Made by a program: the position numbers and the translations under genes
Origin: a virus
Lineage: Duplodnaviria > Heunggongvirae > Uroviricota > Caudoviricetes
DNA: 5,056 nucleotides
Reading direction: 5' to 3' (one strand)
Virus record (IMG/VR): IMGVR_UViG_2529293223_000003
In this document: positions 1 through 5,056 of the stretch, piece after piece
How the letters are laid out: every line of letters begins with the position of its first letter
Position numbering within the stretch: the stretch's first letter is position 1
The notes under the pieces: generated by a model
Databases searched by the model: none
What the model was told of the DNA's origin: nothing
Seen by the model: only the letters and a program-made list of their open reading frames with translations

Positions 1-7
1 AAATAGA

Positions 8-1030
8 ATGGCATCAGAAGAGCTAATAATGAGCAGAAAAACCCAACGTTACTCTAAAGAGTTCAAAGCCGAAGCTGTCAGAACGGTTCTTGAAAATCAA
101 CTTTCGATCAGTGAAGGCGCTTCCCGATTATCCCTTCCTGAAGGCACTTTAGGACAATGGGTTACCGCCGCCAGAAAAGGGCTCGGTACTCCTGGTTCCC
201 GCACGGTGGCTGAACTGGAATCTGAAATTCTGCAACTGCGTAAGGCGTTAAATGAAGCTCGCCTTGAGCGAGATATATTAAAAAAAAGCAACAGCGTATT
301 TTGCACAGGAGTCGCTGAAAAATACGCGTTAATCGAACAATGGCGACAACAATTTCCTATTGAAGCGATGTGTCAGGTATTTGGTGTATCCAGGAGCGGT
401 TATTACAACTGGGTACAGCATGAACCCTCAGACAGAAAACAAAGTGATGAGCGGCTAAAACTGGAGATTAAGGTGGCACATATCCGCACTCGCGAAACAT
501 ATGGAACCCGGCGGCTCCAGACGGAGCTGGCAGAGAATGGCATCATCGTTGGTCGTGACCGACTGGCACGTCTTCGTAAGGAGCTAAGGCTACGCTGTAA
601 GCAGGAACGCAAGTTCAGAGCGACTACGAACTCGAACCACAATCTGCCAGTTGCGCCAAATCTGCTGAACCAGACGTTCGCTCCTACAGCACCAAATCAG
701 GTCTGGGTGGCGGACCTGACGTATGTTGCCACACAGGAGGGATGGTTGTACCTCGCTGGCATCAAAGATGTTTATACGTGCGAAATTGTCGGCTACGCCA
801 TGGGAGAGCGCATGACAAAAGAGCTGACAGGTAAAGCCCTGTTTATGGCGCTCAGGAGCCAGCGCCCACCTGCCGGGCTAATCCACCACTCTGATCGAGG
901 TTCACAGTACTGCGCATACGATTACCGGGTCATACAGGAGCAGTTTGGTCTGAAAACATCAATGTCGCGTAAAGGTAACTGTTACGACAACGCTCCGATG
1001 GAAAGCTTCTGGGGAACGCTGAAAAAATGA
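8..1030 (+). CDS. IS3-family transposase, OrfA-OrfB fused in one continuous frame (340 codons); likely true start is the ATG at 29 (MSRKTQRYSKEF...); C-terminus frameshifted
   Basis: Six-frame ORF 8..1030. An A8 run at 280-287 places orfA and orfB in one frame. With one fewer A the upstream frame reads ...LKKATAYFAQESLKNTR then TAA, a typical 100-aa OrfA ending, so this ORF corresponds to the OrfAB fusion normally made by -1 ribosomal frameshifting on A AAA AAA. The ORF ends at TGA 1028-1030 immediately after an A6 run. Confidence 0.8.
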   Translation: MASEELIMSRKTQRYSKEFKAEAVRTVLENQLSISEGASRLSLPEGTLGQWVTAARKGLGTPGSRTVAELESEILQLRKALNEARLERDILKKSNSVFCTGVAEKYALIEQWRQQFPIEAMCQVFGVSRSGYYNWVQHEPSDRKQSDERLKLEIKVAHIRTRETYGTRRLQTELAENGIIVGRDRLARLRKELRLRCKQERKFRATTNSNHNLPVAPNLLNQTFAPTAPNQVWVADLTYVATQEGWLYLAGIKDVYTCEIVGYAMGERMTKELTGKALFMALRSQRPPAGLIHHSDRGSQYCAYDYRVIQEQFGLKTSMSRKGNCYDNAPMESFWGTLKK

Positions 1031-1118
1031 GAGCCTGAGCCACTATCGTTTTAATAACCGGGATGAAGCCATCTCAGTAATACGGGAATACATTGAGATT
1101 TTCTACAATCGTCAGCGT
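1026..1118 (+). pseudogene. Out-of-frame C-terminal fragment of the IS3-family orfB (NESLSHYRFNNRDEAISVIREYIEIFYNRQR), cut by the Mu insertion
   Basis: Translating the +1 frame from 1026 gives 31 codons with the conserved IS3-family C-terminal pattern (LKNE...F..R.EA...I.EYIE.FYN..R), ending exactly at the Mu terminus. The frame break is at the A6 run 1022-1027. Confidence 0.7.
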
Positions 1119-1200
1119 TGAAGCGGCGCACGAAAAACGCGAAAGCGTTTCACGATAAATGCGAAAACTTTAGCTTTCGCGCTTCAAATGAAACAGCAGT
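1119..1200. mobile_element. Phage Mu right end (attR) with MuA-binding sites R1, R2 and inverted R3; Mu terminus at 1119 (5'-TG...)
   Basis: 1119-1168 reads TGAAGCGGCGCACGAAAAACGCGAAAGCGTTTCACGATAAATGCGAAAAC, which I recognise as the canonical 50-bp Mu R-end. 1172-1198 holds an inverted copy of the MuA consensus (reverse complement TGTTTCATTTGAAGCGCGAAAG). Confidence 0.85.
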
Positions 1201-1233
1201 ATTAATTACCGCTTTTTATTCATTACATGGGGA

Positions 1234-1959
1234 TCACTTAGGGTATGGCTGAACCTTGAATAGTTTGGTATTTAGCCGCTTCCTTGCTCGCTTGTTCAGG
1301 AATCTGATGTAGCGATACTGATTAAATTTGTGCACCACGGCACGCTCCTTATTAGCTCGCAAATACTCGCCTCGTTGCCCTCCGCGCTTAATCGCGTTCA
1401 TCGTTATCTCGTGATACCACTCACCATCCAGCTCGTAGAACGTGCTTTCATGGCTGCCAATAAAATCAAAATTCGACGCCTGATACACAACGCCTGCGAG
1501 TCCGCAGCGTTCGTCAGCAAAGGACTGAACCCACTCCACTGACGGATACAGTAATCTGATAACTTTCAGCGCGTAGCTGATGGCCCGTGATTCAGAGTTG
1601 CGGGGCATGTCGTCGTGTAGCCACATGCGATTCAACTCCATATAGCCCCGGTTATCCGTTTCAAGCACGACACGACGACCTGAGTTGGGGTTAAGGGCAT
1701 ATCCCCACTGGAGAACGCCAACCAGATCACGCCCGCTGAATACTCCCAGGTGAAGGTAAGAGTTATTCACAAAACGGCGGGAATAGTGCTTTGTCTGAAT
1801 GATTGTGCGGGCCAGCCAGCAGGATATGGTTTCAACGCGCAGCTCCTTTGAACCATAGCCAACAATCTGGCCTTCATACTCAATAACGCACGGTTTCGTC
1901 AGAATGCGTGATTTCTTCTCTTTTCCCACAATGTTTCTCCGTGGGATGCTCGCAGACAT
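1234..1959 (-). CDS. mom: Mom, phage Mu DNA-modification protein (adenine N6 carbamoylmethyl/acetamido modification, anti-restriction)
   Basis: ORF 1234..1959 (241 codons from the ATG at 1959). A shorter 231-codon product from the GTG at 1929 is possible. Sits immediately downstream of com with overlapping frames, as in the Mu com-mom operon, next to the Mu right end. Confidence 0.85.
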
Positions 1960-2068
1960 TCAGCATTATGATGTGACGTTTGCAACGCGGACACCTGATT
2001 TCAATGTGATCAAAGGAATCCGCTTTAAATAACAGTTTGTTGCAGTTCTTACAGCGAATTGATTTCAT
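1880..2068 (-). CDS. com: Com, 62-aa zinc-finger translational activator of mom
   Basis: [38 protein letters not shown]... with four Cys in a CxxC...CxxC arrangement. The ATG at 2066-2068 is preceded by a strong Shine-Dalgarno (AAGGAGGT, 5 nt upstream). The ORF track's longer 2086 start lacks this. The 3' end overlaps the mom start region. Confidence 0.9.
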
Positions 2069-2086
2069 TTCACCTCCTTGCATCAA

Positions 2087-2180
2087 TTCGCCGTTATCTT
2101 AAAAAATCTCATCAGTCGGGTGTGGTTATCGGGACATAATCGATCGGTAATACAGATCGATTTAATTGATTCGATCGTCG
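2087..2180 (-). promoter_or_regulatory. com-mom promoter region: three Dam GATC sites (2142-2145, 2155-2158, 2173-2176), T6 run and -10-like TAAGAT (minus strand, about 2096-2106)
   Basis: Three GATC sites within 35 bp upstream of com, the last inside the final codons of the gin remnant. On the minus strand, GAGATTTTTTAAGATAACGG precedes com. This matches the known Dam/OxyR- and C-protein-regulated mom promoter architecture of Mu. Exact -35/-10 assignment is uncertain. Confidence 0.6.
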
Positions 2181-2359
2181 TTTTCTATATGCGTTCCTTT
2201 TTGAAGGCGCTTTAAAGCACGTTTTAATCCCGGTCGGTCTGTCCTTGTTCCGCTTAATTTATCTTCAAATATTTGTTCACATCCTGCACAAACAAGAGCG
2301 TTTCGTTGCAGGTCTGTATTCTGGTCATTTGTTGATACCCTTACATAGCCAATCAGCAC
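2162..2359 (-). pseudogene. gin: gin serine DNA invertase, internally deleted in frame: 65-codon remnant with N-terminal 55 residues and C-terminal about 9 residues
   Basis: GTG start at 2359. MLIGYVRVSTNDQNTDLQRNALVCAGCEQIFEDKLSGTRTDRPGLKRALKRLQKG matches the N-terminus of Gin/Pin/Hin/Cin-type invertases, with the catalytic Ser at residue 9. The ORF then reads T-HIENDDRIN and stops. Full-length invertases are about 185-195 aa, and the gix-to-com interval has no room for another one. Junction is around 2189-2197. Confidence 0.8.
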
Positions 2360-2413
2360 GCTGAATTCCCCGTTTAAAAGCGGAAATCATGCCATGCAGG
2401 CCAGAAACGGCCA

Positions 2414-2439
2414 TTATCTAAAACCTCGGTTTACAGGAA
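2414..2439. other. gix recombination (crossover) site, the gin-proximal boundary of the invertible G segment
   Basis: TTATCTAAAACCTCGGTTTACAGGAA is a 26-bp imperfect palindrome of the hix/gix/cix type (TT.....AAACC / GGTTT.....AA half-sites around a 2-bp core), 55 bp upstream of the gin start. The tail-fibre reading frame opens immediately inside it. Confidence 0.7.
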
Positions 2440-3384
2440 ACGGTAAATCAGGCTTCTGGCGCATTACAGAAAAACCAGAACGGCGCAGATATTCCAGGAA
2501 AAGATACCTTCACCAAAAATATTGGGGCCTGCCGCGCATATAGCGCATGGGTGGATATTGGTGGCGATAGTCAGGTCTGGACAACTGCGCAATTTATTTC
2601 GTGGCTGGAGAGTCAGGGGGCATTTAACCATCCTTACTGGATGTGCAAAGGCTCATGGGCTTATGCAAACAATAAGGTCATTACAGATACAGGTTGCGGA
2701 AATATTTGTCTTGCAGGTGCTGTGGTGGAAGTTACTGGCACTCGCGGCGCAATGACCATACGTGTTACTACACCGAGTACGTCCAGCGGTGGCGGAATTA
2801 CTAACGCTCAATTCACTTATATTAATCATGGCAATGCTTATGCTCCTGGCTGGCGACGAGACTACAACACGAAAAACCAGCAGCCTGCATTTGCTTTAGG
2901 GCAAACAGGAAATACCGTCGGAAACGACAAAGCCGTTGGCTGGAACTGGAATAGCGGTGTTTATGATGCAGATATCAGCGGTGCATCAACATTAATCCTC
3001 CACTTCAATAAGAATACGGGGAGCTGCCCTGCTGTACAGTTCCGTGTGAATTATAAGAACGGCGGTATTTTTTATCGTTCAGCGCGTGATGGTTATGGAT
3101 TTGAGGCTGGCTGGTCAGAGTTTTACACCACAACACGCAAGCCATCAGCGAGAGATGTTGGCGCATATACGCAGGCAGAATGTAACTCAAGGTTTATTAC
3201 AGGTATTCGCCTTGGTGGTCTGTCATCTGTTCGGACATGGAATGGTCCCGGCTGGTCTGACAGGTCAGGTTATGTTGTTACCGGTTCCGTTAACTCAAAC
3301 AGAGATGAACTAATTGATACAACTCAGGCAAGGCCAGTTCAGTATTGCATTAATGGGACGTGGTATAACGCGGGGAGTATTTAA
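2422..3384 (+). CDS. S': Tail-fibre variable C-terminal part, gin-proximal cassette (probably S'v, silent in this orientation); no start codon of its own
   Basis: The frame is open from the stop at 2419-2421 (inside gix) through to 3384. The track's GTG at 2551 has no Shine-Dalgarno. C-terminus ...PVQYCINGTWYNAGSI parallels the other cassette. The S' versus S label is inferred from partner sizes (U' 177 aa, U 175 aa, from memory). Confidence 0.7.
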   Translation, partial: NLGLQETVNQASGALQKNQNGADIPGKDTFTKNIGACRAYSAWVDIGGDSQVWTTAQFISWLESQGAFNHPYWMCKGSWAYANNKVITDTGCGNICLAGAVVEVTGTRGAMTIRVTTPSTSSGGGITNAQFTYINHGNAYAPGWRRDYNTKNQQPAFALGQTGNTVGNDKAVGWNWNSGVYDADISGASTLILHFNKNTGSCPAVQFRVNYKNGGIFYRSARDGYGFEAGWSEFYTTTRKPSARDVGAYTQAECNSRFITGIRLGGLSSVRTWNGPGWSDRSGYVVTGSVNSNRDELIDTTQARPVQYCINGTWYNAGSI

Positions 3385-3386
3385 CG

Positions 3387-3920
3387 ATGATGCACTTAAA
3401 AAACATTTCTGCTGGTAATCCTGAAACAAAAGAGCAATACCAGCTAACGAAGCAATTTAACATCAAATGGCTTTATACAGAGGATGGAAAAAACTGGTAT
3501 GAGGAACAAAAGAATTTCCAGTCTGATACGTTGAAAATGGTCTATGACCACAACGGCGTTATTATTTGTATTGAAAAGGATGTTTCAGCAATTAATCCGG
3601 AAGGCGCAAGCGTCGTTGAGGTTCCTGATATTACAGCAAATCGCCGGGCTGATATTTCAGGTAAATGGATGTTCAAAGATGGCGTAGTGATAAAGCGAAC
3701 TTATACCGGGGAAGAGCAGAGGCAACAGGCGGAAAATGAAAAGCAAAGCCTGCTACAGCTCGTCAGGGATAAAACCCAGCTATGGGACTCACAGCTACGG
3801 CTGGGTATCATTTCCGACGAGAATAAACAAAAATTAACCGAGTGGATGCTCTATGCGCAGAAAGTCGAATCCACAGACACCTCCAGCCTGTCAGTAACGT
3901 TTCCCGAACAACCTGAATGA
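3387..3920 (+). CDS. U': Tail-fibre assembly protein (Tfa family), 177 aa, probably U'
   Basis: ORF 3387..3920, MMHLKNISAGNPETKEQYQLTK..., starting 2 nt after the tail-fibre stop with a GGGGAG Shine-Dalgarno. N-terminal about 110 residues are paralogous to the minus-strand Tfa, the C-terminus diverges. Confidence 0.85.
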   Translation: MMHLKNISAGNPETKEQYQLTKQFNIKWLYTEDGKNWYEEQKNFQSDTLKMVYDHNGVIICIEKDVSAINPEGASVVEVPDITANRRADISGKWMFKDGVVIKRTYTGEEQRQQAENEKQSLLQLVRDKTQLWDSQLRLGIISDENKQKLTEWMLYAQKVESTDTSSLSVTFPEQPE

Positions 3921-3923
3921 GAC

Positions 3924-3950
3924 AAGGCCCGCTATCGGGCCTTAATTTTT
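3924..3950 (+). terminator. Intrinsic-terminator-like hairpin between the convergent tfa genes (stem AAGGCCCG / CGGGCCTT, loop CTAT, then AATTTTT)
   Basis: 8-bp GC-rich stem at 3924-3931 and 3936-3943 followed by a T5 run on the plus strand. The U-tract is weaker on the minus strand, so bidirectional function is uncertain. Confidence 0.5.
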
Positions 3951-4476
3951 ACTCTGGTTTTTGTGGCCATTCTGGCTTTGCCGTATCCACACGGCTGACC
4001 AGAACACTGTAGCGTTCCCATGACTCCAGTCGTGCGCGTTCCTCATCTGTTGCCATATTCAGCCTGACAGAGCGCTCCAGCGGCTGAATAACGCTTTCTG
4101 CTTCGGAAAGTAACGCAGCTTTTTGTAATTCGGCCTGTTGTTGCTGTTCGTCTGCCGTATAAATCCGTTTAACCACAGCTCCGTCCTTAAACATCCATTT
4201 ACCTGAGTCATCAGCACGTCGGTTGGCTGTTATATCGGGGATTTCAACGACGCTAAAACCTTCAGGATTAAGCGTGGAGGCATCTTTAGTGACGGCGACA
4301 ATAATATTATTTTCGTCGTAAACAATCTTTATTGTGTCCGGCTGAAAGTTCTTCACTTCCTCATACCAGTTTTTATCGTCTTCAGAGTAAAGCCAGATGA
4401 CTCCGTGTTTCTTTGTCAGCTCATACTGTTCTGGTGTTTTAGCGTTACCCGCTTTTATATTCTTCAGGTGCATCAT
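3949..4476 (-). CDS. U: Tail-fibre assembly protein (Tfa family), 175 aa, probably U
   Basis: ORF 3949..4509 trimmed to the [11 protein letters not shown]... start at 4476, which mirrors the plus-strand tfa start and lies 1 nt after the upstream tail-fibre stop (4478-4480). The 11 extra N-terminal codons in the track ORF overlap the tail-fibre gene and are unlikely to be real. Confidence 0.85.
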
Positions 4477-4477
4477 A

Positions 4478-5056
4478 TTAAATACTCGCCACATTATACC
4501 AAGTGCCATTTATATACTTTTGCACTGGCCTGTAATGAACGCCTGCAATATTATCGGCAGAGTTTTTTCCGGTATCCTGTACGTTAATCCCCGTCAGTAC
4601 ATAGCCTGACGGGCACTGGAAATTCCATGTTTGCCAGTTGTTCACTCCATAATATTGCTGTGAACCAAGCCGGACATCTTTCACATATCTGGAATCAAAA
4701 TTGCCATAGTTGCCTGGAATAACTTGCGAGCCGCAAAGCCAGTTACCGTTATTATCCATGTACGCCTGACCATCGGTGCCATTGGCTGTCCTTGAGTTAT
4801 TAATCATGTAGATGCCAAATTGCTTATTCCCCAGCCCACCAATTACGAATTTACGGTCGGTATGGTCCTGGCGAAGCAATGCCTGCGCACCATCGTTGGA
4901 TACCGCATTACGGCCCAGAATAACATTCTGGTCACGCATATGAATCCACATGCCGGTACTACTGTTAATTGCAAAACGGTTTGCAAATATATCTCCTGTA
5001 ACAACCAGACCATGCCCCATGCTTATCCGGCCAGTTCTGAGATTAAGCGTAAAGGG
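4478..5056 (-). CDS. S: Tail-fibre variable C-terminal part, distal cassette (probably Sv, the expressed one if fused to a constant part outside the window); partial, continues past the window end
   Basis: Minus-strand frame is open from the window edge (5056) to the stop at 4478-4480. C-terminus ...[16 protein letters not shown]. The ATG at 5020 is internal. Confidence 0.75.

Follow-up and report, generated by a model that had tools for sequence, protein, structure and literature searches.

A Mu-type right end joined to the interior of an IS600 copy in Shigella boydii

Phage Mu (AF083977 / NC_000929), D108, SfMu and the prophages of E. coli W share a genome plan, in which the right arm reads attR-mom-com-gin-G, with S, U, U' and S' in the G segment. 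A functional Gin invertase beside G is a typical, although not essential, feature of the group, and the recombinational enhancer lies inside gin. Mu prefers targets of the form N-Y-(G/C)-R-N, and simple lysogenic integration is the commoner event for this phage. The second partner considered here, IS600, is an element of Shigella and E. coli belonging to the IS3 family, with orfA, orfB and an A7G site of programmed frameshifting; matches to it were found in 3,506 of 5,426 complete E. coli genomes. Shigella genomes are rich in such insertion sequences, and much rearranged.

The locus described here joins members of both families. The window, meaning the whole stretch of DNA that was analysed, is 5,056 bp long and is identical in sequence to the complete contig AFGE01000074.1 of assembly GCA_000211975.2, which the methods table of one publication lists as Shigella boydii 5216-82 (PMC8342411). 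Its features are as follows.

1-1118, + strand: IS600 (IS3 family), with orfA and with orfB minus its last 22 codons (megablast; alignment to L001; Pfam HTH_21/rve)
1114-1118, + strand: AGCGT, the target bases beside the Mu end (IS600 1148-1152) and the predicted duplication copy (read from the sequence)
1119-1233, - strand: Mu-type right end (attR), ...CCGCTTCA-3', which is TGAAGCGG on the + strand, extending to the mom stop (AF083977 alignment)
1234-1929, - strand: mom, DNA-modification gene, 231 aa (Pfam Mom; aligned to Mu_53)
1880-2068, - strand: com, translational activator of mom, 62 aa (Zn_ribbon_Com in collinear loci; aligned to Mu_52)
2162-2359, - strand: gin remnant, 65 aa (DNA alignment to Mu; BLASTP to Mu Gin)
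2414-2454, no strand: gin-proximal boundary and inverted repeat of the invertible G segment (strand switch of BLAST matches)
2551-3384, + strand: Sv', the alternative C-terminal part of the tail fibre inside G, 277 aa as listed (collinearity with Mu S'; faint gp37_C)
3387-3920, + strand: U', tail-fibre assembly chaperone, 177 aa (Pfam Caudo_TAP; Mu U' feature)
3949-4476, - strand: U, tail-fibre assembly chaperone, 175 aa (Pfam Caudo_TAP; Mu_50)
4478-5056, - strand: 3' (variable) part of the tail-fibre gene S, which runs off the contig (510-aa S gene in L013; AF083977 arrangement)

Of the bases from 1119 to 5056, 95% aligned to phage Mu (AF083977), with an identity of 92% that rose to 96% between the right end and the gin remnant (1119-2200). 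When the AF083977 annotation was mapped onto the window, the right arm followed the order attR-mom-com-gin-G with S/U and S'/U', and the called genes carried the Pfam domains Mom, Zn_ribbon_Com, Resolvase and Caudo_TAP. Two differences from Mu stand out: gin has suffered an in-frame 384-bp deletion, and the G segment is approximately 92% identical. In addition, the lineage's MuA differs at its N-terminus, and shares 93% identity with P0080, the representative of the large E. coli MuA cluster. The phage is therefore a relative of Mu, not the laboratory phage itself. The E. coli W-type prophages showed approximately 96% identity over the right-end 1.5 kb and approximately 98% to the early region of the lineage, with a span of approximately 36.5 kb, while the G region of SfMu matched at 95.6%. 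However, the E. coli W-type, D108 and SfMu relatives retain an intact gin (annotated 'recombinase family protein'), such that the match splits in two around the deletion, and they occupy other chromosomal sites.

The joint and its chromosomal setting

A sequence-only reading of this DNA had placed the end of an IS3-family transposase frame, ...EYIEIFYNRQR, at 1118 and the beginning of a Mu right end at 1119, and alignment upheld both positions. On the phage side, base 1119 is the terminal Mu nucleotide (the reverse complement of AF083977 position 36717); the first 78 bases of the tip were all identical to those of Mu (78/78), as were 112 of the 115 in the non-coding end up to mom. The tip closes with the terminal CA characteristic of Mu-type right ends. 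The MuA-binding region, with sites R1-R3, lies within 1119-1233 and is conserved.

On the other side, the suggestion that the element was IS600 or a relative was also borne out. The reference was a complete IS600 (L001 566-1829, 1264 bp, annotated 'IS3-like element IS600 family transposase, programmed frameshift'), to which window 1-1118 aligned as positions 36-1152 at 99.6% identity, with orfA, orfB and the -1 frameshift site all recognisable. IS600 continues beyond the base corresponding to 1118, where it has no natural end. Past 1152, complete copies read CGTCACTCTCG... / CGTCACTCTCGTCTGGGG..., coding for RHSRLGNISPAAFREKYHQMAA*, which includes the R-H-S continuation that the sequence-only reading had expected after YNRQR and had noticed to be missing. 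Equally absent from the window, as that reading had also stated, is the right inverted repeat, ...GTACACCTCA, which closes the reference; L013 has the left inverted repeat, just outside the window's start. The element is thus not a complete, mobile copy with both terminal repeats. The missing portion (1153-1264) comprises the last 22 codons of orfB and the right inverted repeat; at 112 bp of the 1264-bp reference, it is longer than the 70-80 bp originally estimated. In the window, the OrfB frame stops at 1118, and its TGA stop codon consists of the first three Mu bases (window 1116-1121). When window 1-1300 was compared with the 5,426 complete E. coli genomes by megablast, thousands of IS600 matches were returned at identities of up to 99.6%, and every one of those listed ended exactly at base 1118.

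The window differs from complete IS600 in three run lengths: a G is missing near 19(-20), A8 replaces A7 at 280-287, and A6 replaces A5 at 1022-1027. PSSR01000001.1, which has the same IS600 copy, shows none of the three differences, and they are most likely homopolymer sequencing errors of the 454 type rather than biology. The A8 run falls on the programmed-frameshift site, where it mimics a -1 frameshift and generates an apparent fused orfAB reading frame (8-1030), before the A6 run breaks orfB. This fused 340-aa frame was rejected as a real transposase, as it needs the extra A that PSSR01000001.1 lacks, and a protein look-up found no record of its product.

The same base-exact joint, ...CAATCGTCAGCGT meeting TGAAGCGGCGCACG..., is shared by AFGE01000074.1, by PSSR01000001.1 (L013/L072/L148), and by L023, a 3.4-kb IMG/VR viral contig from IMG genome 2529293223. 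The entire window aligns collinearly to PSSR01000001.1, a 3.27-Mb contig of assembly GCA_002968245.1, at 99.64% identity, with 15 substitutions in addition to the three run-length differences. Two Illumina-type contigs from the same lineage (L014 and L015) end no more than two bases from the Mu tip, as would be expected of a place where unique phage DNA meets a repeat.

In PSSR01000001.1, the order is rne-flgL-flgK-flgJ'-IS600(1-1152)-attR-mom-com-G segment-S (510 aa)-gp48-baseplate J-gp46-gp45, followed by a gpP-like gene and genes for a DNA circularisation protein, tape measure, gp41, tail tube and sheath. The last Mu base is at 2,645,994, the IS600 fragment occupies 2,645,995-2,647,146, and the truncated OrfB is 250 aa, a product recorded on three contigs only. 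The left inverted repeat of IS600 adjoins flgJ sequence (FVQMMLKSMRDAL...), with flgJ interrupted at about codon 43/44 and lacking its first ~43 codons. Therefore a resident IS600 interrupts flgJ, and the phage would in turn interrupt IS600. Neither the joint nor flgJ::IS600, including the empty site without phage, was found among the 5,426 complete E. coli genomes. Of the 26 blocks with identical Mom in contigs longer than 1 Mb, only that in PSSR01000001.1 has the IS600-type joint. This insertion marks a small S. boydii lineage.

The gin-deleted right arm and its sister copy in dpiA

The deletion in gin joins window positions 2195 and 2196, removing residues 56-183 of Mu Gin and leaving residues 1-55 and 184-193 in a 65-aa product (alignment; BLASTP). 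Hence G is not flanked by a functional invertase gene in the window. The identical 65-aa product was recorded in 613 collection blocks, and the deletion is therefore both old and widespread in Shigella. The identical Mom protein was recorded more often still, in 1,484 blocks, whereas the U and U' variants of the window were on only 8-10 contigs. The 5' 165 bp of the gin remnant may still hold the recombinational enhancer.

The boundary of the G segment was located where matches to L015/L010 flip strand, with a 41-bp overlap at 2414-2454, and the boundary annotated in Mu maps to approximately 2426. The window carries G in the G(+) orientation, as does the Mu reference AF083977. Among near-identical gin-deleted copies (99.5% identity in G), the window, L013 and L014 have the G(+) orientation, and L015/L150 and L010 have G(-). 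As opposite orientations occur in copies that all carry the deletion, inversion has taken place with no functional gin in cis, presumably through the trans action of a resident invertase; pinB has been reported in S. boydii.

The same module also occurs elsewhere. In nearly every large contig, the right end with the gin-deleted module is joined not to IS600 but to dpiA, beside the cit operon, and the source names recorded for the linked repressor suggest that the host is Shigella flexneri. The dpiA copy retains both Mu ends, with ...GCCCCAG preceding TGTATTGATT... at the left, and ...CCGCTTCA preceding CCCAGCCG... at the right, flanked by a 5-bp duplication, CCCAG. The duplication and the presence of both ends in dpiA imply that the lineage integrates in the manner of Mu. 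What remains in dpiA (L003-L012, L031, L039, L063-L071) is a remnant of 6-9 kb, sharing its gin-deleted module and Mom with the window; it comprises the left end, a repressor (169 aa), ner, an A gene cut off at residue 544 by the complete IS600 that follows it, part of G, and then the gin remnant, com, mom and the right end, with extra IS1 insertions in some copies. The result is a natural 'mini-Mu' in dpiA (L003, L005, L031, L039, L041 and L063-L071), variable in its IS1 insertions and deletions. In L004, L064, L066 and L070, the left side has been swapped for a different region, containing gal/mod genes and a phage integrase.

The right-end modules of the S. boydii and dpiA copies are 99.8-99.9% identical over window 1119-2412. 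Their G segments are only approximately 94% identical, and their repressors and the N-termini of their A proteins differ. On these comparisons, the two are mosaic relatives sharing a gin-deleted right arm. The fall in identity from 99.8-99.9% to approximately 94% coincides with the G boundary (window versus L003-L009), and the pattern suggests that G-segment cassettes may have been exchanged between related prophages.

The occurrence of one module at different Mu-type sites, in IS600 and in dpiA, together with both orientations of G, raises the tentative possibility, which we hold to be some way short of likely, of a gin-less Mu-like phage that is or was transposition-competent in Shigella, and that switches its tail fibres through a resident invertase in trans, such as one of the pin family. 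The widespread gin deletion, alongside a G segment that is nevertheless found both ways round, is the only part of this work that might merit a small experiment.

Origin of the joint

It is probable that the joint arose through the integration of a Mu-like phage into a resident IS600 by MuA transposition, with a stagger of AGCGT. The Mu terminus is complete down to its final base and the IS is cut internally; the joint therefore arose at the phage end, through MuA-type strand transfer into the target. The sequence-only reading had likewise proposed that a Mu-type phage transposed into the IS. The transposition itself finds support in the Mu-end chemistry, the internal cut in IS600 (1152/1264) and the late genes, at least 12.8 kb of which lie behind the joint in PSSR01000001.1; it is the identity of the phage that requires amendment, from Mu itself to a relative (~92-96% identity, with gin deleted). 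The converse order of events, in which IS600 inserted beside Mu, was rejected, as it would have put an IS terminus, rather than an internal IS position, at the joint.

The proposed history would have proceeded in two steps. Firstly, a copy of IS600 would already have been resident, at about codon 43/44 of flgJ in the related PSSR01000001.1. Secondly, the phage would have entered this copy through MuA-catalysed transposition, with each Mu end attacking the target through the 3'-OH of its terminal CA, with a 5-bp stagger at IS600 1148-1152 (AGCGT). This would have split orfB 22 codons before its stop, leaving a truncated OrfB ending at the TGA from the first Mu bases, and would have placed a whole prophage (~36 kb in complete relatives) between the left portion of IS600 and the remaining 112 bp with the right inverted repeat, such that this IS600 copy could no longer transpose as a unit. 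The far side would then consist of the left Mu end, a second AGCGT, IS600 1153-1264 and the 5' end of flgJ. In PSSR01000001.1, the expected reading is flgI, flgJ codons 1-43, the reverse complement of IS600 1264-1153, ACGCT, and TGTATTGATTCACTTGAAGTACG... We infer both the nesting of the whole prophage in IS600 and the duplication of AGCGT. Whichever strand is read, this pentamer agrees with N-Y-(G/C)-R-N at only two of the three positions that carry information, and so counts little for or against.

Two alternative histories carry equal and low probability. In the first, an intramolecular (replicative) Mu event started from a resident prophage, joining the right end to IS600 with deletion or inversion of the intervening DNA, and the left end kept its older flank, with no bracketing AGCGT. 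The identical gin-deleted right-end module at a second site, dpiA in S. flexneri, is what this history would draw upon; however, the copies in dpiA belong to another Shigella lineage, and differ in the repressor, in the N-terminus of MuA and in a G segment that is only 94% identical. The 454 contig, moreover, reads unbroken from attR into 1.1 kb of IS600, as for a single flank, and simple lysogenic integration is commoner, leaving an intramolecular event improbable. In the second, Mu inserted into IS600 as in the preferred history, but homologous recombination between IS600 copies followed, such that the flgJ context or the far-side DNA is not original. In its favour, the megablast of complete E. 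coli genomes placed IS600 at up to 43 sites per genome, and the sister Mu remnants contain deletions associated with IS600 and IS1. Yet the locus bears no direct sign of rearrangement, with rne-flgL-flgK-flgJ' synteny intact up to the left end of IS600 in PSSR01000001.1, and we regard later recombination of this kind as similarly unlikely.

An assembly chimera at a repeat, or a variant IS600 ending naturally at 1118, can be dismissed: although the window, a short contig of the 454 era, is flanked by repeats and has three homopolymer-length errors in its IS600 part, the base-exact joint recurs in the 3.27-Mb contig and in L023, and hence in two independent assemblies, such artefacts arise at repeat edges rather than 112 bp inside an IS, and complete IS600 copies all run on for those 112 bp.

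With integration of a Mu-like phage into IS600 as the preferred history, the joint is an ordinary case of nested mobile elements, both from well-known families. With so many IS copies in a Shigella genome, it is to be expected that a phage integrating near-randomly should land in one of them, and the understanding of Mu and of IS3-family elements is unchanged by the joint. A literature search found no paper describing this particular insertion. Its value is for annotation, as it explains a truncated-looking IS600, a contig break and the site of a prophage of approximately 36 kb (flgJ::IS600), in a small S. boydii lineage.

Extent of the prophage

The sequence-only reading had put the prophage at about 37 kb if complete, a reasonable figure given that complete relatives (E. 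coli W and FDAARGOS_1058) are approximately 36-36.5 kb long between their two ends. Full-length MuA (665 aa), MuB and Gam are encoded on L086, from IMG genome 2529293223, which also has the joint; another contig of this genome, L052, carries tail genes and is 99.45% identical to PSSR01000001.1. The exact L086 MuA was recorded on 42 contigs, the longest of which, at 3,275,068 bp, is the same size as PSSR01000001.1; one source gives its species as S. boydii. We infer the link between this MuA and the present prophage copy from co-occurrence on one contig or genome, rather than from continuous sequence. The prophage very probably reaches the early region.

Searches for the far junction as ATCAATACA-N5-CGTCACTCTCGTCTGGGGAATATC returned no instances in genome_contigs, metagenome_contigs or viral_contigs, collections in which the near-junction control returned none, none and one 3.4-kb contig (L023), respectively. 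The 23-mer of the Mu left end was present at 17 loci in IMG/VR, none flanked by the IS600 tail and none from the junction-bearing genome. Homology searches with the repressor and truncated A of the dpiA remnant, and with full-length A, yielded no representative identical to the proteins of the PSSR01000001.1 prophage; the closest MuA representative examined, P0082, is at an unrelated host site. From the junction-bearing genome, following the tape-measure and MuA proteins through IMG/VR yielded only contigs that were small or trimmed at genes (L052 and L086). Both L086 and L090, IMG/VR contigs from different genomes, start exactly at the MuA start codon, which looks like the trimming of proviruses at a gene boundary rather than a biological end. 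Such trimming would hide the left end in IMG/VR.

At the opposite extreme of the window, the contig end at 5056 does not fall at the G inverted repeat. Judged from L013, it lies inside the variable part of S, approximately 445 bp before the far boundary of the G segment, and the contig likely stops there because of similarity to other tail-fibre genes in the genome.
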